Position numbers and translations under genes: made by a program
Part shown: one piece after another, positions 3,322-46,788 of the stretch
Layout: the number at the start of each line of letters is the position of its first letter
Position numbering within the stretch: the stretch's first letter is position 1
Notes under the pieces: generated by a model
Databases searched by the model: none
The model's input: only the letters and a program-made list of their open reading frames with translations
What the model was told of the DNA's origin: nothing
Source: an uncultured bacterium
Lineage (GTDB): Bacteria; Patescibacteriota; Microgenomatia; Levybacterales; UBA12049
Direction: 5' to 3'
Assembly (NCBI GenBank): GCA_963826535.1
Contig: CAWGXL010000011.1
Coordinates: forward strand, 809-64,808
Length of the DNA: 64,000 nucleotides

Positions 3322-4927
<1,606 letters not shown>

Positions 4928-14705: not shown

Positions 14706-14722
14706 GTATAATACCTAACGAA

Positions 14723-14739
14723 GCCCCGCTAAGCGGGGC
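14723..14739 (+). terminator. GC hairpin (GCCCCGCTAAGCGGGGC) downstream of bioY. Member of the CCCCGCT-AGCGGGG hairpin family.
   Basis: Perfect 7 bp stem. Related hairpins at 2631-2649, 3249-3265 and 5160-5216. Confidence 0.4.
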
Positions 14740-14762
14740 GGAGTGGTATAAAATGAAGAATC

Positions 14763-15677
14763 ATGACCTTTCTTGAAAAATACAAGCTCCTGAAAAAATC
14801 CGTCCCAGTTTCCGCAGTGACTATTGGTCCATATACAGTTGATTGTGAATATGTGGATTATCTTTTTAAAAGCAAAAATTGCTATTATAGTATTGAGGGA
14901 TTCTTCTTAGAAAACTGCATTTATATAGACTTTGCAACATTAAGTAATAAACTCGCAGATTGTACTCATTTAGTAGAATCAGAAAAGTGTTATGAATGCG
15001 TTGATTGCGGCAAGTGTCATAGTTGCACCTACCTTTTTGATTGTTATAACTGTACGGATTGTCATTTTTCCGCACTTTTAAATTCCTGTTCCGATTGCTT
15101 CGGCTGCGTTGGCTTAATTCATAAAAAGTATTGTATTTTTAATCAACAATATAGCAAAGACGAATACTTTAAAAAAGTTGAAGAATTAAAAAAAGAGAAT
15201 CCTGAATCAATTTTTAGGCAAATGATTGAATTAAAAAAACGGATGCCGCATCCGGCCAGTCAACAGTTCGATAGCGACAATTGTCCTTATGGAAATTATA
15301 TCTATAATTCTAAAAACTGCTATTGGTCTTTTAATACTTTATACAGTCAAAATTCCGGCTATACTTATTATTGCACTCTTGCAAAGAACTGCTGGGACAT
15401 GTTTCGCTCAGGCGGAAGCAAAGCTGAAAACGCTGTGTCGGAGAGATGTTATGAGATGGTTTATTCAAGGCCAAGTAACTACGGTTGCGCATTTCTTACT
15501 ACAAGCCAAAATTGTACTAATAGTTACTATAGCACGGATCTTAGAAACAGCTCCGATTGCTTCGGCTGTGTGGGATTAACTAATAAGAAATACTGCATTT
15601 TGAATAATCAGCTAACCAAAGGAGAATATGAAAAAGCCGTAAAAGAAATCAGAAAAGATCTTGGATGGAATTTTTAG
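14763..15677 (+). CDS. Cys-rich tandem-repeat protein of unknown family (paralog A), with an internal two-half duplication.
   Basis: 304 aa. Periodic C-x2-C ladder (CYECVDCGKCHSCTYLFDCYNCTDCHF...SCSDCFGCVGLIHKKYCIFNQQYSKDEY). The second half ends with the same DCFGCVGLTNKKYCILNNQLTKGEYEKAV motif. About 60% identical to the ORF at 43549..44457. Confidence 0.6.
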   Translation: MTFLEKYKLLKKSVPVSAVTIGPYTVDCEYVDYLFKSKNCYYSIEGFFLENCIYIDFATLSNKLADCTHLVESEKCYECVDCGKCHSCTYLFDCYNCTDCHFSALLNSCSDCFGCVGLIHKKYCIFNQQYSKDEYFKKVEELKKENPESIFRQMIELKKRMPHPASQQFDSDNCPYGNYIYNSKNCYWSFNTLYSQNSGYTYYCTLAKNCWDMFRSGGSKAENAVSERCYEMVYSRPSNYGCAFLTTSQNCTNSYYSTDLRNSSDCFGCVGLTNKKYCILNNQLTKGEYEKAVKEIRKDLGWNF

Positions 15678-40444: not shown

Positions 40445-42946
40445 ATGCCCGCAAAAATTAATCTTCGTGATAGTTACAGTAATATTGAAGCCGAGGAAGT
40501 ACTTCAAGAACTACAAACAAATAGTGTCTCTGGACTGAATAATATTCAAATTAGTGAAAGACTAAAACAATTTGGTTTTAATCAATTACGTACAAACAAG
40601 CTCACACCTTTTACATTAATATATCGTCAACTTACCGGCAATCCGCTTTTACTTATTCTTGCTGCGGCAACACTTATCTCTTTTCTTCTTGGAGACCGGA
40701 CAACTTCTTATTATATTTTTGGAATAATATTAATAAGTATTTTTCTTGGTTTCTGGAATGAATATTCTGCGGAAAAAACAGTTGAAGGACTCTTGAAAAA
40801 AATTGCTCCATTGGCTCTTGTTATTCGAAATGCGGAAAAACAGGAAGTTCCAGCTTCCCACTTAACAATCGGCGATATTGTTTTTTTATCCCAAGGGAGT
40901 ATTATACCGGCCGATGTGCGTTTTCTTGAAACTAACAGTCTTGAGGTAAATGAATCTACTTTGACAGGTGAATCTAAAACAGTATTTAAAGAAAGCGGCG
41001 ACCATATGAAGAACATTGGTTATATGGGAACCAGCGTTGACAGCGGATCAGGAAAAGGAGTCGTCATCCAAATCGGTAAAGAGACTCAATTTGGCAAGAT
41101 CGCAAAAAGTGCAACGTTTATTAGGCCTGTCACTGAGTTTCAAAAAGGCTTATCCCGTTTGGGAACGCTGATAATAAAATTTGTACTCATATTAACTATA
41201 TTAATTTTTCTTATCAATGCACTCTTACAACACGATATTCTCGATTCAATTCTTTTTTCGCTGGCAATTGCCGTGGGTATAACGCCTGAGCTTTTGCCTG
41301 TTATTGTGACAGTCAGTTTGTCGCATGGAGCCGGAAAACTGGCTAAAAAACATGTCGTTGTAAAGCGGCTACTTTCTTTAGAAAGTTTGGGAAATATAGA
41401 TGTTTTATGTACCGATAAAACCGGGACTTTGACTGAGGGCAAAATTGATGTGGTTGATTATATTAATTTAGAAAATAAAAAGGATATTCAAGTACTTACC
41501 GCATCACTCTATTGCAACATGGGCATTGTGCATAAGAAAATAACAGGCAACGCAATTGACGTGGCGCTTTGGACACATGCACTTAAGGAGAAATTATATA
41601 TCAACGCTGAGCTGAAAAAAGTTTATGAAGAAGAATTTGATTATAACCGCAAGTTGAATTTTGCTGTTGTAAAAAATAATAAAGAAACCGTACTTTTCGC
41701 AAAAGGCGCACCAGAAGCAATAATACCGCAATGCACAAATATTAAGAACAATGTAACGCTTGAAAAAAAGCTTGATGCACTCCGTCTGACGGGTTTGAGA
41801 ATTATTGCTGTAGCAAAAAAACACATAGAAGCAAAAAAAACCTACTCCTTCGATGATGCGGATAAATTAGAATATCTAGGGTATATTACGTTTCTGGATA
41901 TTCCGAAAAAATCCGCGCAGGTTGCATTGACACAGCTTAAAAATCTGAATGTAATGGTAAAAGTAATTACAGGAGACAATGAAATTGTAACCAAAAAAAT
42001 TTGCCAGGAAGTAGGTATGGATGTAAAACGCGTACTGACCGGTCCTCAAATTGAGAAATTGTCTGATCCTGAGCTAAAACACATTGTTAATACCGTTGAT
42101 ATTTTCGCCAGGGTGTTGCCGCTGCAAAAGCTGAAAATAATAAAAGCTTTGCAGGAAGCAGGCCATACTGTGGGATATCTGGGAGATGGGATAAACGATC
42201 TGCCGGCATTACATAATGCGGATGTCGGTATATCTGTGAATACTGCTGTTGATGTGGCGAAAGAAGCTGCTTCAGTCGTACTGCTTCGCAAAGGTATTGA
42301 CGTAATTGATGATGGGATTCGGGAGGGTAGACGCACCTTTAGTAATACTATTAAATATATTATAATTACCGCCAGCTCAAACTTTGGTAATATGTTCTCT
42401 GCCGCCGGGGCTTCTTTTTTCTTACCTTTTCTGCCAATGACACCTGTTCAGATACTTTTAACAAACGCGCTTTATGATGTAGCGCAACTGTCAATTCCAA
42501 CAGATAATGTTGACCATGCATCGCTGGTAAAACCCAGACATTGGAATATTGATTTCATTAAAAATTATATGCTATTTTTCGGTCCCTTAAGCTCTGTTTT
42601 TGATTTTTTGACATTTAGTATTTTAATTCTTGTTTTTCATGCAGAGGGACCACTTTTCCAAGCAGGCTGGTTTATTGAATCCTTGGCTACACAAGTACTT
42701 ATAGTCTTTGTGATAAGAACATCTAAAAGGCCTTTTTATAAAAGCCGGCCTAGCATTTGGCTAGTAATTGCATCGCTGGGAATTGTACTAACTGCCATAT
42801 TAATTCCATTTACTCCGCTTGCCGGTCCGCTGCAATTTTTGGCGCCTCCACCATTATATTTTGTATTCCTTATTATTATAATTGTTTCATATCTCTTTTT
42901 AATCGAATACATGAAGGGAGTATTTTTGAAGAAGTTCAATTTATAA
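40445..42946 (+). CDS. P2-type cation-transporting P-type ATPase (Ca2+/Mg2+-type).
   Basis: TGES, DKTGTLT, ITGDN and GDGINDLPAL motifs. About 10 TM segments. 833 aa. Confidence 0.9.
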   Translation: MPAKINLRDSYSNIEAEEVLQELQTNSVSGLNNIQISERLKQFGFNQLRTNKLTPFTLIYRQLTGNPLLLILAAATLISFLLGDRTTSYYIFGIILISIFLGFWNEYSAEKTVEGLLKKIAPLALVIRNAEKQEVPASHLTIGDIVFLSQGSIIPADVRFLETNSLEVNESTLTGESKTVFKESGDHMKNIGYMGTSVDSGSGKGVVIQIGKETQFGKIAKSATFIRPVTEFQKGLSRLGTLIIKFVLILTILIFLINALLQHDILDSILFSLAIAVGITPELLPVIVTVSLSHGAGKLAKKHVVVKRLLSLESLGNIDVLCTDKTGTLTEGKIDVVDYINLENKKDIQVLTASLYCNMGIVHKKITGNAIDVALWTHALKEKLYINAELKKVYEEEFDYNRKLNFAVVKNNKETVLFAKGAPEAIIPQCTNIKNNVTLEKKLDALRLTGLRIIAVAKKHIEAKKTYSFDDADKLEYLGYITFLDIPKKSAQVALTQLKNLNVMVKVITGDNEIVTKKICQEVGMDVKRVLTGPQIEKLSDPELKHIVNTVDIFARVLPLQKLKIIKALQEAGHTVGYLGDGINDLPALHNADVGISVNTAVDVAKEAASVVLLRKGIDVIDDGIREGRRTFSNTIKYIIITASSNFGNMFSAAGASFFLPFLPMTPVQILLTNALYDVAQLSIPTDNVDHASLVKPRHWNIDFIKNYMLFFGPLSSVFDFLTFSILILVFHAEGPLFQAGWFIESLATQVLIVFVIRTSKRPFYKSRPSIWLVIASLGIVLTAILIPFTPLAGPLQFLAPPPLYFVFLIIIIVSYLFLIEYMKGVFLKKFNL

Positions 42947-42973: not shown

Positions 42974-43252
42974 GTGCTATATACTGCGACTATGGAAACA
43001 AAGATTTTAAATTATCGGATTATTCTTAAGAAAGAAAAGGAAACAAGGAAGACCATATTTCTTGCAGAATGTCCCACATTGGGAATATATGACTGGGGAG
43101 ATACTCTTGATCTGGCTCTCTCACATATCAAAGAAGCAATAGAATGTCATGTTGCATCCTTACTAAAAGATGGTGAGGAAATACCGGTTGATTATCCTGA
43201 TAAAGAATTTGTGACAGAAACAAAAATTATTGTACCAACTCTTCTTCCCTAA
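42974..43252 (+). CDS. hicB: HicB-family (UPF0150) antitoxin.
   Basis: 92 aa with RNase-H-like fold signature (YRIILKKEKE...FLAECPTLG...GDTLDLALSHIKEAIE). Confidence 0.65.
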   Translation: MLYTATMETKILNYRIILKKEKETRKTIFLAECPTLGIYDWGDTLDLALSHIKEAIECHVASLLKDGEEIPVDYPDKEFVTETKIIVPTLLP

Positions 43253-43263
43253 GCTCTTAATTC

Positions 43264-43488
43264 ATGAGCGTTCTTGCAAATATCAAAGTAAAAGATATGG
43301 AGCGTATATTGCTAAGCAAAGGGTTTCAGCCTCATGCATCAAAAGGGAGTCATAAAACATTCAAGCACCTAGATGGTAGAAGAACGACACTTGCCTATCA
43401 TCCGGGAAATATCCCCAAACCAATTGTTGCAAAGATACTTAAACAATCCGGTATAACAAGAGATGAACTTCAAAAATATCGTAGATAA
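43264..43488 (+). CDS. hicA: HicA-family mRNA interferase toxin.
   Basis: 74 aa. ...GFQPHASKGSHKTFKH...PKPIVAKILKQSGI HicA/YcfA motif. Confidence 0.7.
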   Translation: MSVLANIKVKDMERILLSKGFQPHASKGSHKTFKHLDGRRTTLAYHPGNIPKPIVAKILKQSGITRDELQKYRR

Positions 43489-43548: not shown

Positions 43549-44457
43549 ATGACATTTCTTGAAAAATATGAACTGCTGAAAAAATCTATACCTGTTCCGG
43601 CTGTGACGATTCCAGGTACAGTTGAAAGTGAATATGTGGAATATTGCTATAGATGCAAAAATTGTTTTTACTGCATTGATGGATTCACGCCACTTATAGA
43701 TAGTATATATTCAAACTTTGCACGGGGTAATAAGCTTGTGGATTGTACTAATGTGACAGAATCGGAAAAGTGTTATCTATGCTTTGATTGTACAAAGTGC
43801 TATAGCTCTACTTATCTAATGGATTGTAATAACTCTACCGATTGTCATTTCTCAGCATTTTTAAATTCTTGTAATGATTGTTTTGGTTGTGTGGGTTTAA
43901 CTCAAAAAAAATATTGTATTTTTAATAAACAATATACAAAAGAAGAATACCTAAAAAAAGTAGAAGAATTAAAAAAAGGAAAGCCTGAAATGATCCTCGA
44001 GCAAATGATTGAATTAAAAAAACAGATACCGCATCCCGCAAGTCAACAATTTAATAATGAGAATTGTCCGTTTGGTGATTATATATATAATTCCAAGAAC
44101 TCCTACTGGTGCTTTATTGCAACATATAGTGAGAATTCAGGTTATTGTTATCAAGTTAGTCGAGTAAGGAACAGTTGGGATGCATTTTACTCCGGCGGTA
44201 ATGCAGAAAAAAAAACTACTACCGAGCGATGTTATGAAATTGTAAATTTAACGGGCTGTTACGAATGTGCTTTTGTATATAATTGTGAAGACTGTACAAA
44301 TTGTTACTACGGGGCAGATCTTTTAAACTGTTCCGATTGTTTTGGCTGCGTTGGAATATTAAAGAAGAAATATTGTATATTAAATAATCAATTTACAAAA
44401 GAGCAATATGAAAAAGCCGTTAAGAGCATCAAAAAAGAGCTTGGGTGGAAAATTTAG
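43549..44457 (+). CDS. Cys-rich tandem-repeat protein of unknown family (paralog B).
   Basis: 302 aa. N-terminus MTFLEKYELLKKSIPVPAVTI is near-identical to paralog A. Same CxxC ladder and C-terminal DCFGCVG..KKYCILNNQFTKEQYEKAVK motif. Confidence 0.6.
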   Translation: MTFLEKYELLKKSIPVPAVTIPGTVESEYVEYCYRCKNCFYCIDGFTPLIDSIYSNFARGNKLVDCTNVTESEKCYLCFDCTKCYSSTYLMDCNNSTDCHFSAFLNSCNDCFGCVGLTQKKYCIFNKQYTKEEYLKKVEELKKGKPEMILEQMIELKKQIPHPASQQFNNENCPFGDYIYNSKNSYWCFIATYSENSGYCYQVSRVRNSWDAFYSGGNAEKKTTTERCYEIVNLTGCYECAFVYNCEDCTNCYYGADLLNCSDCFGCVGILKKKYCILNNQFTKEQYEKAVKSIKKELGWKI

Positions 44458-44494: not shown

Positions 44495-44812
44495 TTACCT
44501 ATTCCGCAATGCTATTAAAAAACTGCCAAGTAGATATAGAAGCAAAGCTTGCCAGAAAAGGATTGATAAAAGAGTTGTGCTTAGAAAAATCACGACAATT
44601 TCCCGCTTAAAGCCTTGAGGAGAAACAAACAAGGCAGCAATTCTTCCGACAATAAATAAAATGGCAAGACCCATGACCGGAGAAAATACAACTGGTAATA
44701 AAATAGGACGGCGTACCATACCTTTTACATATTTAGAGGGATAGAATGTCAAGCCAATTAATGTTTTTGTCCAGATATAGGCAACAAAAATAAAAAAAGT
44801 GTGCTTCTTCAT
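44495..44812 (-). CDS. Small membrane protein, possibly part of an anti-sigma module.
   Basis: 105 aa with three hydrophobic segments. Start overlaps the upstream gene by 4 nt. Confidence 0.3.
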   Translation of the reverse strand: MKKHTFFIFVAYIWTKTLIGLTFYPSKYVKGMVRRPILLPVVFSPVMGLAILFIVGRIAALFVSPQGFKREIVVIFLSTTLLSILFWQALLLYLLGSFLIALRNR

Positions 44813-45039
44813 TTTGGTCCGCCGAAAATTCTTAATATTAAATTATCATAAGGCGTACCGATAAATCCGTGAAAGATAAATGAAAATATGAAAGCCAGCG
44901 GGATAAGTATTCTCCACGGATGATTACCAAGCCAAATAGTTACAGTTTTGAATACGCGGGGGAAAACCATATCATTCAAAACCTTTTCTTGATCTTTGGC
45001 TCTTTTCTGAAGCTGCAATAAAAATTCACGCTCGTTCAT
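44809..45039 (-). CDS. Small single-pass membrane protein. Candidate anti-sigma factor.
   Basis: 76 aa with one TM. Overlaps the stop of the ECF sigma gene. Confidence 0.35.
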   Translation of the reverse strand: MNEREFLLQLQKRAKDQEKVLNDMVFPRVFKTVTIWLGNHPWRILIPLAFIFSFIFHGFIGTPYDNLILRIFGGPK

Positions 45040-45559
45040 AAGCTATTTGAAAACGCCGGCGGGCTCGGAAAAGTAGAGATTCGGTTGCTTTAAAAGACAG
45101 GTTGAATATAGGTGCCAATTCCTTTACGGGTATTTTGTCTTCGTAATGAAGGTGTAGAATTTTTTGATACTGAAGCGAAATTTCCAGAAATGCTTTTTCA
45201 ATTTTATCACGGATTTTGTCTTTCTCAAATTGAAACTCCGGCTGTTGAATTTCAGCGGCGATAATTTCCAAAAACGGCGCCTGAGATAAAAGAACGGATT
45301 TTATTTTTCTCTTTCTGTAAAAGTCAGCGACTTTATTGTGGGCAATTTTAAAAAGCCAAGTAGTTACACTACTTTTTTCCTGAAATAGATGCAACTCGTC
45401 AATAGCTGCGAAAAATATATCATTTAAGACTTCTTCAGCGTCTTCTTTGCATGGAAGTTTTCTACGTAAAAACGAAAGTAATTTCGGAGAATTAATTTTA
45501 TAAAACGCGACCACCGCATCACTATCTCCCTGCAATATCCTGTCTAATATACTAGTCAT
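45026..45559 (-). CDS. ECF-type RNA polymerase sigma factor (sigma-70 family).
   Basis: Region 2 (EEVLNDIFFAAIDELHLFQEKSSVTTWLFKIAHNKVADFYRKRK) and region 4 (IPVKELAPIFNLSFKATESLLFRARRRF). Confidence 0.75.
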   Translation of the reverse strand: MTSILDRILQGDSDAVVAFYKINSPKLLSFLRRKLPCKEDAEEVLNDIFFAAIDELHLFQEKSSVTTWLFKIAHNKVADFYRKRKIKSVLLSQAPFLEIIAAEIQQPEFQFEKDKIRDKIEKAFLEISLQYQKILHLHYEDKIPVKELAPIFNLSFKATESLLFRARRRFQIAYERA

Positions 45560-45630: not shown

Positions 45631-46788
45631 ATGAATTTACGTAATTTTGTTGATGTTAGTTCAAGACGAGCCGCACTGGAAGAAAATTTGGGCATAGAAC
45701 TTTCCAATATTGGTAAATATACATTAGACGCGCAACAAGCTTCCACAAAAAATTGCGAAAATATGATTGGCATAGCACAGGTTCCGCTTGGTATTGCCGG
45801 GCCACTACAATTAACAAGTAATTTGCAAAAAAGAGAATATTTTCTCCCTTTGGCCACGACAGAAGGAGCTTTAATTGCATCTGTTAATCGGGGATGCAGT
45901 GCTATTGCTCAGGCTGGGGGGGTAAATGTGATAAGCGAGAAAATTGGCATGACCCGGGCGCCTGTTTTTGTGGTTGAAACTATTACTCAAGGCAAGGCGT
46001 TTATTCACTGGATTGAAAATAATTTTGCCAAGATTAAAGAAATTACAGAGTCTACTTCAGATCACTTGGAGCTTCTCAAAATTACCCCTCACTTGATGGG
46101 CAGAAATGTTTATTTGCGTTTTCATTTTGATACTCAGGATGCAATGGGTATGAATATGGCAACAATCGCAGTTGCTAAAGCAGTCCCATTTATAGAAGAG
46201 CAAACTTCTGCGCGTTGTGTGGCTATATCCGGAAATATGTGTGTTGATAAAAAGCCAAATTATCTTAATTTCATTGAAGGCAGGGGGTATAAAGTATGGG
46301 CCGAGACGGTATTGCCGGACGATATAGTGGCAACTGTTTTAAAAACTAAAATAGAAAAAATTATTGAAGTGGCTCAAAGAAAATTACTGTATGGATCTAT
46401 AATGGCAGGTAGTATTGGAGCAAACGCTCATTTTGCCAATATACTTGCAGCTCTTTTTATAGCGACCGGTCAGGATGTGGCACATGTAAGCGAGTGCTCG
46501 ATGGGAGTGACAACTTTTGAAAAAGTGGAAAATGGATTATATATGTCAGTGTATCTGCCGGATTTAGTTGTCGGGACTGTGGGAGGAGGAACACAGCTTG
46601 CTACTCAAAAAGAAGCGTTGAGTATAATGGGATTGAATCCTAAAAAAGAAAAAAATACAGGACGGAAACTTGCCGAGTTAACTGCAGGAGCTGTGATGGC
46701 TGGAGAATTATCGCTCATGGCATCTTTGGCTGCAAATACAGTAGCCCGCGCACACCTGAAATATGCAAGAGGAGTTCAAGAGGCTTAA
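45631..46788 (+). CDS. hmgA: Class I-type HMG-CoA reductase, soluble short form.
   Basis: ATTEGALIASVNRGCSAI and FDTQDAMGMNM class I signatures. 385 aa. Confidence 0.9.
   Translation: MNLRNFVDVSSRRAALEENLGIELSNIGKYTLDAQQASTKNCENMIGIAQVPLGIAGPLQLTSNLQKREYFLPLATTEGALIASVNRGCSAIAQAGGVNVISEKIGMTRAPVFVVETITQGKAFIHWIENNFAKIKEITESTSDHLELLKITPHLMGRNVYLRFHFDTQDAMGMNMATIAVAKAVPFIEEQTSARCVAISGNMCVDKKPNYLNFIEGRGYKVWAETVLPDDIVATVLKTKIEKIIEVAQRKLLYGSIMAGSIGANAHFANILAALFIATGQDVAHVSECSMGVTTFEKVENGLYMSVYLPDLVVGTVGGGTQLATQKEALSIMGLNPKKEKNTGRKLAELTAGAVMAGELSLMASLAANTVARAHLKYARGVQEA

Follow-up and report, generated by a model that had tools for sequence, protein, structure and literature searches.

An old, diverged two-lobe Cys-ladder protein beside hicBA in a CPR bacterium and its possible tie to a coupling ATPase

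Introduction

Directly downstream of a hicBA toxin-antitoxin (TA) pair, a CPR bacterium encodes a protein with a ladder of cysteines, and the locus raises the question of what this protein does and whether its place beside hicBA bears on its function. The gene, here called paralog B (43549..44457, + strand), is a complete and intact open reading frame of 302 aa for a predicted two-lobe Cys/Ser-ladder beta-solenoid protein, in which 28 residues (9%) are cysteines in CxxC spacing. The product is a 100% match (E-value 1.9e-207) to P0001, which is encoded on a contig of 894,453 bp. Upstream of B lie a hicB-like antitoxin gene (42974..43252, +; PF15919, E-value 4.1e-6), which could also start from an ATG at 42993, and a hicA toxin gene (43264..43488, +; PF07927, E-value 6.7e-13), which ends 60 nt before B. 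A P-type cation ATPase gene is located 600 nt upstream of hicBA. The window, i.e., the whole 64-kb stretch of DNA that was analyzed, contains only two family copies by tblastn, B and paralog A (14763..15677, +; 304 aa, identical to P0028), the latter flanked by a BioY gene and a 2-hydroxyacid dehydrogenase gene. An earlier note on this DNA described B as a Cys-ladder repeat protein paralogous to A and as lying directly downstream of hicBA (42974-43488). Both descriptions are right, as A and B are 64% identical in amino acid sequence (E-value 2e-138), and hicBA and B lie on the same strand.

Protein Architecture and Predicted Fold

The AlphaFold (AF2) model of B (pLDDT 88.6, pTM 0.83) has two beta-solenoid lobes. 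The protein begins with a conserved N-terminal helix, MTFLEKYELLKKSIPVPAVT (residues 1-20; 43549..43608, +; modelled helix 3-13), in which F3, L4, L10, K12, S13, and P15 are at least 90% conserved. The lobe 1 solenoid (residues 21-125; 43609..43923, +) follows, with ladder positions running from 27 to 123. Its residues 20-62 are variable (median paralog identity of 39%), and its model is only moderately confident, with a pLDDT of 65-70 for residues 70-120; AF2 confidence is lower in the Cys-densest region. Lobe 1 closes on cap motif 1 (43870..43926, +), C108-x2-C111-x2-C114-x8-C123, then I-F-N; the four cysteines are 97-99% conserved among close homologues and 89, 93, 93, and 65% conserved family-wide, respectively, with His or Tyr also found at position 123. 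A and B are most alike in the inter-lobe helices (residues 126-165, QYTKEEY...ELKK...IPHPAS; 43924..44043, +; modelled helices 131-143 and 146-159), with 80-85% nucleotide identity. The lobe 2 solenoid (residues 166-280; 44044..44388, +; pLDDT 86.6) has strands about every 12 residues in the model, ladder columns 173-276 that hold Cys, Ser, or small residues, and a variable stretch at residues 195-245 (median paralog identity of 45%). It closes on cap motif 2 (44329..44385, +), C261-x2-C264-x2-C267-x8-C276, then I-L-N. Among close homologues C264 is invariant and C261, C267, and C276 are at least 96% conserved, while C267 and C276 reach 97 and 89% family-wide. A Lys-rich C-terminal capping helix, QFTKEQYEKAVKSIKKELGWKI (residues 281-302; 44389..44454, +; modelled helix 284-298), carries a net charge of +3. 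Each lobe thus closes with the conserved CxxCxxC-x8-C, the cap Y-C-I-x-N-x-Q-x-T-x-E-E-Y, and then an alpha helix, whereas variability among paralogs falls in the N-terminal part of each lobe.

Within the solenoids, every third residue (the ladder columns) is C, S, L, V, I, or A, mostly Cys or Ser. The presence of Cys co-varies at separations of 12 and 3, with no coupling at a separation of 6 among the top 40 pairs. In the model, each coil takes up about 12 residues, and the position that recurs at every third residue faces inward. No hydrophobic or membrane segment and no signal peptide was found in B (maximum KD19 of 0.90), and the product is predicted to be soluble. The pI of B is 6.2, and that of B and its paralogs is near neutral (5.5-8.1).

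The two caps are encoded by an internal DNA repeat of 81 nt, whose copies (43876..43956, +, encoding cap 1; 44335..44415, +, encoding cap 2) are 75% identical and spaced by 459 nt. Paralog A carries the same repeat at a spacing of 462 nt. This repeat is taken to be the trace of an ancient duplication of a lobe of about 153 codons. A tandem repeat at the DNA level was also considered for B and was rejected, as none was detected.

Size and Distribution of the Family

A total of 547 homologues was found, 28 of them on the 894,453-bp contig. The genome-wide paralog count, which the earlier note had proposed as a check, therefore stands at 28 or more, the number being a lower bound; at about 0.9 kb each, 28 copies devote roughly 3% of a tiny, 894-kb genome to one family. 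Across Patescibacteria the family comprises 3,609 clusters at 50% identity. Its profile spans residues 1-300 of B, a full-length match, and all of the family hallmarks are present in B, namely two caps with following helices and a ladder of Cys, Ser, or small residues at every third position. Pfam and NCBIfam scans of A and B returned no match at E ≤ 1, and hence no ferredoxin or metallothionein match, and a PADLOC scan of B and its homologues returned no anti-phage defence match. The single match of B in a PHROG scan was the unnamed phrog_15341 (E-value 3.6e-9), beyond which the family has no curated, function-bearing model. A literature search by concept and sequence motif found nothing on it. 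B belongs to a very large, unnamed Cys-ladder family, defined here, that is related to phrog_15341 and is present in CPR bacteria and some phages.

Like B, phrog_15341 has a Cys-x-x ladder and a terminal cap (CFGC...K-x-K-Y-x-I-x-N-x-Q-x-T-x-E-E-Y) with a helix after it, and its viral members match with E-values down to 8e-118. These phage members have one lobe of 74-284 aa with a near-pure (C-x-x)n ladder; their Cys content reaches 27%, and they are rods of acidic pI (4.3-5.2). In contrast, B is neutral, its two lobes have degenerate ladders, and its gene lies on the chromosome of a CPR bacterium.

Zinc Fingers and a Coupling ATPase in Relatives

The long-form CPR homologues, of about 560 aa, enclose the core between treble-clef fingers, in the order zf_Tbcl, core, and zf_Tbcl or zf_Tbcl_2. 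They share with B the same two-lobe core of about 300 aa (32-38% identical), whereas both zinc-finger modules (PF13451 and PF23477) are missing from B, and A and B have no Pfam match. The long forms often stand in tandem arrays beside a VirD4-like T4CP, while A and B each stand alone at separate sites. Most CPR lineages have the zf_Tbcl finger fused to the core; in the lineage of B it is a separate gene of about 93-103 aa (loci L004 and L081-L084). In close relatives the gene order is pyrG, T4CP, zf_Tbcl, two to three Cys-ladder genes, and rplS.

A T4CP-like gene (PF10412, PF12696, DUF87, or DUF8128) adjoins a family gene in 14 of 80 species-representative loci from several CPR classes, that is, in about 18% of loci that are phylogenetically non-independent. 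The adjacency is seen also in L081-L083. This partner ATPase belongs to the FtsK/VirD4 lineage of DNA translocases; in the PADLOC scan, the T4CP-like ATPase next to family genes matches the HerA and mad8 models weakly. The 64-kb window contains neither a T4CP homologue nor a zf_Tbcl gene, so A and B are linked to a T4CP by homology alone. Loci L001 and L002 share no synteny with the window beyond the family gene. With regard to a possible type IV secretion substrate, which a coupling protein would recognize and translocate, the observations are the T4CP next to family genes in relatives and the Lys-rich C-terminal end of B. A radical-SAM/RiPP substrate was rejected, as such neighbors are absent from 85 loci.

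Proposed Role of Paralog B

Taken together, B, an old, diverged two-lobe member of the family, is tentatively read as a binding or scaffold module that works with a coupling ATPase, with hicBA incidental to it; this reading is given a probability of about 0.45. As a best guess at its function, B would be a binding module that has no enzymatic activity and is tied to this ATPase. The conserved cap cysteines would probably coordinate a metal with a structural role, and the ladder cysteines would for the most part be packing residues. The family might act with a membrane-anchored, VirD4/TraD-like coupling ATPase by way of a treble-clef zinc-finger adaptor, its copies being cargo or adaptors of that ATPase, and the 28 or more diverged copies could give one cell a repertoire of differing binding surfaces.

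Orphan T4CPs are abundant in Patescibacteria and have been suggested to be exapted, and what the VirD4-like ATPase does there is acknowledged to be an open question (PMC12102498). The Cys-ladder family offers a concrete candidate partner for these orphan ATPases. A bolder version, in which the solenoids are the missing partners (cargo or adaptors) of the orphan VirD4-like ATPases, this lineage has expanded them to 28 or more distinct modules that serve a host-dependent lifestyle, and phages keep pared-down acidic one-lobe versions, is improbable. Carried furthest, it would have the (Cys-x-x)n core wrapped around metal ions stacked in a column, each 12-residue coil contributing four thiolates.

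Alternative Readings

The cysteines themselves could be the point of the protein. As a metal-thiolate protein, B would bind Zn, Fe, or Cu along its ladder for metal storage, buffering, or electron transfer, with up to four inward thiolates envisaged per 12-residue coil. Such a protein would account for the 9% Cys in CxxC spacing (up to 27% in phage relatives), the invariant four-Cys caps with Cys and His alternating at position 123, and the co-variation at i/i+3 and i/i+12 expected of stacked CxxC pairs. The lower AF2 confidence in the Cys-densest region and the P-type cation ATPase gene upstream of hicBA are also consistent with it. However, most ladder positions freely take Ser, Leu, Val, Ile, or Ala, so the ladder cysteines are not obligate ligands. 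In addition, 28 paralogs with distinct variable surfaces would be unexpected of a buffer, ferredoxin and metallothionein models are unmatched, and paralog A has no transporter neighbor. A metal-thiolate role is considered unlikely. The unusual cysteine-lined solenoid is a subject for structural and metal-binding study.

The phage relatives suggest instead a DNA-related accessory factor, inherited from or shared with phages, which, for example by mimicking DNA or as a partner in handling it, would act on DNA translocases or restriction and repair proteins. These relatives lie in replication and recombination modules and not near secretion genes, one of them between a DnaB-like helicase and RecE/RecT, so a DNA-related role fits at least as well. 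Their acidic one-lobe rods, the DNA-translocase lineage of the partner ATPase, and the treble-clef fingers fused to the long forms point the same way. On the other hand, the pI of B and its paralogs is close to neutral, anti-phage defence models are unmatched, and no homologue turned up by tblastn in 50,697 deposited phage genomes. Such a factor is rather improbable. For B itself, a strongly acidic DNA mimic was rejected on its pI.

Coils of 12 residues with a small residue or Cys at every third position recall the antifreeze proteins of insects, above all that of Tenebrio molitor (TmAFP). The TmAFP repeat, TCTxSxxCxxAx, places inward residues at every third position, and its cross-coil disulfides are found at a separation of i/i+6. 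The protein is a very narrow beta-helix with coils of 12-13 residues and 8 disulfides (PMC6834126). Like TmAFP (1EZG/1L1I), B is Cys-rich with coils of about 12 residues, as judged from the strand spacing in the model and the Cys co-variation. Unlike B, TmAFP is secreted, disulfide-bonded, and 84 aa long, with a TxT ice-binding face. That B is a secreted, disulfide-laddered surface protein or an ice-binding-type beta-helix is very unlikely, as it has no signal peptide, membrane segment, or TxT face, its cysteines co-vary at separations of 12 and 3 and not 6, the sequence match to 1EZG reaches only an E-value of 0.93, and the gene neighbors are cytoplasmic. TmAFP is not among the Foldseek matches listed for B.

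Toxin-Antitoxin Neighbors

The position of B could mean that it is a third, specifically coupled component of HicAB. In the window, hicB, hicA, and B share one strand, with a gap of 60 nt and no terminator predicted; the same order recurs in L001 with a gap of 8 nt, and in L051 two family copies flank a hicAB pair. Against this, the window, L001, and L051 are the only loci where hicAB adjoins a family gene; it is missing beside paralog A and most members of the family, and the remaining loci have a different TA type or no TA module. By tblastx, the HicAB proteins of L001 give no match to those in the window and so are not closely related to them. Overall, TA modules of at least seven unrelated families (HicAB, BrnTA, MazEF/PemK, YafQ/ParE, Phd-Doc, PIN, and TumE) adjoin family genes in 11-13 of about 83 loci. 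Judging from these neighborhoods, hicBA beside B is one case of a general tendency of TA modules to lie near family genes and not a specific partner, and the hicB-like gene and B are probably not in the same functional unit. A third HicAB component is accordingly a most implausible role for B.

Age and Mode of the A/B Duplication

The earlier note took A and B to be strongly conserved in DNA over their first ~70 and their last ~90 nt, with a divergent middle, and saw in this a hint of gene conversion or recent duplication. The codon-aligned nucleotide identity is 78% over the first 24 codons and 77% over the last 30, compared with 71% for the rest, and the peak of conservation is central (codons 121-170, 80-85%); the pattern described in the note is not confirmed. 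The ends are as diverged synonymously, with pS of 0.56 and 0.74 compared with 0.68 in the middle. The dN/dS comparison, also proposed by the note, gave 0.13 with a saturated dS of about 1.7, and the longest exact run common to A and B is 23 nt, within an A-rich central stretch. Nor is B an assembly duplicate of A, since overall nucleotide identity is 72% and the flanks are unrelated (22 and 12% identity). Because dS is saturated, dN/dS is low, and the flanks are unrelated, A and B are old duplicates under purifying selection, and B is an intact, anciently diverged family member. The mild conservation of the ends is attributed to constraint at the protein level on the N-terminal helix and C-terminal cap, which is common to all paralogs.

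A recently duplicated or gene-converted variable family, with the conserved ends as recombination anchors and a diversifying middle, would fit the somewhat higher identity of the termini, the many paralogs in a single genome, and the variable regions at residues 20-62 and 195-245, but it is hardly credible in the face of these values, the absence of long identical tracts, and the finding that segment identity within the 24 full-length paralogs of the contig is 86% at most for any pair; for A and B it is largely refuted. Transposon-like dispersal was rejected as well, as shared flanks and terminal repeats are absent.

Comparison with Known Systems

A Foldseek search with the model of B matched only beta-helix proteins, and the left-handed beta-helices of LpxA, LpxD, GlmU, and gamma-carbonic anhydrase were the only solved structures retrieved. 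Hexapeptide-repeat proteins resemble B in their short, stacked strands, and gamma-carbonic anhydrase also has a following alpha helix. However, TM-scores to B are 0.2-0.39 with an rmsd of about 10 Å, their coils have 18 residues compared with about 12 in B, and B has no Hexapep Pfam match or sequence similarity to this superfamily.

Ankyrin, LRR, and pentapeptide repeats are expanded solenoid-repeat families of host-dependent bacteria. The Cys-ladder family has no homology to them and shows no sign here of secretion or host targets. Nevertheless, it resembles such expansions in its many diverged paralogs, its setting in a small genome from a host-dependent lineage, and its combination of a variable surface with a constant frame.

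Sequence and predicted fold of the gene B product

Gene B (43549..44457, + strand) is an intact open reading frame of 302 a.a., 28 of them cysteines. As the earlier note had read it, B encodes a Cys-ladder repeat protein paralogous to that of gene A (14763..15677, + strand; 304 a.a.); the proteins are 64% identical (E 2e-138), and tblastn of the window returned no copy besides these two. Judged by sequence, B is a clear member of a family without a curated, function-bearing model. Pfam and NCBIfam scans of B and A returned no match at E ≤ 1, and the only library relative is phrog_15341, an unnamed phage family of unknown function.

In the alignment, Cys occupies every third residue over residues 27-123 and 173-276. 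These ladder cysteines exchange freely with Ser among close paralogs, and with Leu, Val, Ile, Ala, and Gly as well across 401 family members, which marks the ladder as a set of putative buried packing positions rather than obligate metal ligands. Excepted from this are two four-Cys motifs of the form CxxCxxC-x8-C, the caps (C108/C111/C114/C123 and C261/C264/C267/C276), which are nearly invariant, with Cys123 alternating with His and Tyr across the family. Both A and B contain an internal direct repeat (81-107 nt, spacing 459-462 nt) that encodes both caps and is evidently the trace of an ancient duplication of a lobe of about 153 residues; no DNA-level tandem repeat was found.

According to an AlphaFold2 model based on a 109-sequence alignment (pLDDT 88.6, pTM 0.83; confidence dropping to 65-70 over residues 70-120), B is a two-lobe beta-solenoid consisting of an N-terminal helix, a short-strand lobe 1, two helices, a regular short-strand lobe 2, and a C-terminal helix. 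Modeled separately, lobe 2 has a pLDDT of 86.6 and a strand recurring about every 12 residues. Independently of the model, Cys co-variation at ladder positions is commonest at separations 12 and 3 (9 and 8 of the 40 strongest pairs), which is consistent with coils of 12 residues, each with four positions predicted to face inward. Foldseek against the PDB returned only left-handed beta-helix proteins (LpxA, LpxD, GlmU, and gamma-carbonic anhydrase) with TM-scores of 0.1-0.39 and an rmsd of about 10 Å, a local solenoid likeness of the model and not a matching fold; a BFVD structure search gave similarly generic matches, and profile and sequence searches of the PDB gave nothing significant. B has a near-neutral pI and lacks hydrophobic segments, its Kyte-Doolittle mean over 19 residues peaking at 0.90, and among its ten invariant columns (P15, D65, N126, Q128, Y134, G176, Y229, C264, G266, and N279) no catalysis-like constellation is evident.

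Paralogs, relatives, and coupling-ATPase loci

B and A are identical to the database proteins P0001 and P0028, respectively, both encoded on a single 894,453-bp contig. The paralog count proposed in the earlier note came to at least 28 distinct proteins from this contig, four of them truncated, among the best 120 of 547 homologs. Their pairwise identity runs from 53% to 80% (median 61%), and the 24 full-length copies stay at or below 86% identity to one another in every segment examined, so the expansion as a whole appears to be old. Residues 20-62 and 195-245 vary most (median identity 39-45%), and residues 66-170 and 251-302 are conserved (67-73%). Related contigs have a similar density (6 copies in 494 kb, 4 in 197 kb, 2 in 149 kb, and 2 in 75 kb), and the homologs bearing names come from Beckwithbacteria, Roizmanbacteria, and "Patescibacteria group," which makes it probable that the source organism belongs to the Microgenomates.

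When 1.84 billion cluster representatives were searched with the family profile, 3,609 clusters matched at E ≤ 1e-3, 1,182 of them at E ≤ 1e-30, with lengths grouping around 300, 420, and 560 a.a. In the long forms the core is flanked by a treble-clef finger (zf_Tbcl, PF13451) with a zinc ribbon on the N-terminal side and by zf_Tbcl/zf_Tbcl_2 fingers on the C-terminal side. Scanning the GTDB species representatives yielded 560 confirmed sites; the 80 loci kept span Peregrinibacteria, Gracilibacteria, Parcubacteria groups, Saccharibacteria, and Microgenomates groups. Of these loci, 45 have between two and five copies in tandem and 11 a TrmB-like regulator, and in 14 a VirD4/TraD-like coupling-protein gene, whose product has an N-terminal membrane helix and DUF87/TrwB_AAD_bind/TraG-D_C domains, directly adjoins the family genes. 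With about two such genes assumed in a genome of ~1,000 genes, the adjacency expected by chance lies well below 1%; the enrichment is rough and uncorrected for phylogeny.

In the closest relatives with context (L081:5322-9811, L082:3765-9887, and L083:2601-7825; 49-58% identity to B), the gene order, with operon-like spacing, is pyrG, a coupling ATPase (~760 a.a.; DUF8128 and TrwB_AAD_bind), a zf_Tbcl protein (92-93 a.a.), 2-3 Cys-ladder genes (products of ~300 a.a.), rplS, UPF0102, and uvrB. In this lineage, accordingly, the finger has a gene of its own and the Cys-ladder core is free-standing. Neither the ATPase gene nor the finger gene was found in the window, so both A and B lie dispersed, apart from the coupling-ATPase locus. 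A survey of 2,918 Patescibacteria genomes counted 5,713 VirD4-type coupling proteins, only 148 of them near virB4, and raised their exaptation as a possibility (PMC12102498). A literature search found no paper mentioning the Cys-ladder family.

Several variant loci were also seen. In four Parcubacteria-type loci (L043, L049, L059, and L074), the tandem family genes are closely followed downstream by a DUF5674 gene (~116 a.a.) and a ~100-a.a. partner. The 487-a.a. product of L001:1965-3428 scores against the family profile, has a start that by eye resembles a PHP-domain phosphoesterase, and matches the cap region of A at its C-terminus (tblastx), so that it is possibly a fusion protein with the cap motif. 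In the 148-a.a. product of L002:4001-4447, which shares 65% identity with B, the N-terminal portion of lobe 1 is fused to a C-terminal cap; this is a derivative with one lobe or a deletion, and its genome, a related one, is labeled Gammaproteobacteria and is probably a mis-binned MAG.

Proposed role and alternatives

The fold class, ladder, caps, internal duplication, purifying selection, family size, and neighborhoods in relatives are taken as shown. Beyond them we propose, with a probability of about 0.45, that B is a non-enzymatic binding or scaffold module with metal-holding caps, linked to a VirD4-like ATPase via the finger protein and drawn from a repertoire of paralog surfaces. B would be cytoplasmic; its caps probably hold structural metal, and it would work with the ATPase through the treble-clef protein. 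Diverged paralogs would differ in the surface they offer for binding, formed by the variable coils at the beginning of each lobe, while the frame stays constant. The uncertainty lies mostly in the ATPase link for dispersed copies and in the bound partner.

A metal-thiolate role for the whole ladder is unlikely, being weakened by the Leu, Val, and Ile found at ladder positions. Somewhat less likely still is a DNA-related or DNA-mimic role, which is suggested by the phage relatives. One-lobe proteins of 74-284 a.a. are encoded on 12 IMG/VR contigs, for instance at L086:4920-5675, L093:4400-5837, and L087:4887-5243, and at L097:4615-9312, where a 5-kb run of small ORFs on one strand includes four copies or more; one such gene sits between DnaB-like helicase and RecE/RecT genes. 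In them an N-terminal helix is followed by an almost pure (Cys-x-x)n run (e.g., CSDCSDCFGCSDCSRC...) and a cap as in the family (CFGC...K-x-K-Y-x-I-x-N-x-Q-x-T-x-E-E-Y). Their Cys content reaches 27%; they belong to phrog_15341, with E values as low as 8e-118, and Pfam gave no match. A search of 50,697 deposited phage genomes found no homolog. These proteins are mostly acidic (pI 4.3-5.2), whereas B is not, which argues against a mimic. That B is secreted and laddered with disulfides, in the manner of the Tenebrio antifreeze protein, is very improbable, as it lacks a signal peptide and a TxT face, and no i/i+6 coupling shows among the 40 strongest Cys pairs.

Toxin-antitoxin neighbors

The placement of B directly downstream of hicBA, as the earlier note described it, holds: HicB-like (42974..43252, +; PF15919) and HicA (43264..43488, +; PF07927) genes lie on the same strand and end 60 nt before the B start codon. 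No terminator-like site was found between them and B, and the single promoter-like site there is no better than chance. Immediately upstream of hicBA is a P-type cation-transporting ATPase gene (40445..42946, +; E1-E2 ATPase, cation ATPase N and C domains), with no evidence of a link to the Cys-rich gene.

Toxin-antitoxin modules of at least seven unrelated families are direct neighbors of family genes, or separate two of them, in 11-13 of ~83 independent loci, a rough count uncorrected for phylogeny. These include hicB-hicA followed 8 nt on by a family gene (L001:3481-4909), hicAB between two copies (L051:1896-2349), BrnT/CopG between two copies (L083-85; L083:5964-6510), TumE abutting a family start codon (L082:7581-8000), PemK (L032, 5433-5780, and L035), MazE-type and YafQ/ParE pairs (L036, 3115-5962, L040, and L078), Phd/Doc (L062:4171-4804), and a PIN gene (L023). 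The L001 HicAB proteins are not close relatives of those in the window. The simplest reading is that family arrays are favored landing sites for such modules, or lie in accessory regions, and that hicBA and B are not a specific three-gene system; that B is a third component of HicAB is accordingly given very little weight.

Origin of the two copies and their surroundings

The earlier note had also described strongly conserved DNA ends around a divergent middle, suggesting recent duplication or gene conversion. The codon alignment shows otherwise: the first 24 and last 30 codons are 78 and 77% identical vs. 71% for the remainder; the best-conserved block is central (codons 121-170, 80-85%) and the least conserved spans codons 221-250 (49%). 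Synonymous differences are near saturation throughout (pS 0.56 for the opening 24 codons, 0.68 for the middle, and 0.74 for the closing 30), and the dN/dS comparison that the note proposed gave 0.13 (dS ~1.7, dN 0.22). The longest exact run in common is 23 nt, A-rich and central. Upstream and downstream flanks are unrelated, A lying between BioY and 2-hydroxyacid dehydrogenase genes, and B between hicBA and an ECF sigma factor operon. A and B are therefore old duplicates kept by purifying selection; the same evidence rules out an assembly duplicate, which the note had named as the case against it, and leaves recent duplication or conversion with next to no probability.

A GC-rich hairpin (GCCCCGCTAAGCGGGGC) at 14720..14745, between the BioY gene and A, is the likely bioY terminator, so A probably has its own promoter. 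Beyond B lie two small ORFs without matches (44495..45039, −) and the ECF sigma factor gene (45026..45559, −), with an HMG-CoA reductase gene downstream (45631..46788, +; PF00368, E 5.5e-120) in this small Patescibacteria genome. The window also holds a complete bacterial 16S rRNA gene (3322..4927, +; 1348.9 bits), which spans 1,606 nt against a 1,533-position model, so that a short insertion is possible; the window gave no above-threshold match for 23S or 5S rRNA genes.

Comparison with known systems

The gene-conversion question thus has a negative outcome, and the analysis draws attention instead to a CPR/phage family, so far unstudied and much expanded, with a tie to orphan coupling ATPases. 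B falls outside the hexapeptide-repeat beta-helices, the ferredoxin and metallothionein families, and the defense systems, and agrees with TmAFP-type antifreeze proteins in coil length only. Among known kinds of protein, B would work like the solenoid repeat scaffolds; unusual in it are the Cys-lined 12-residue coil, the duplicated capped lobe, and the distinctive genomic association.
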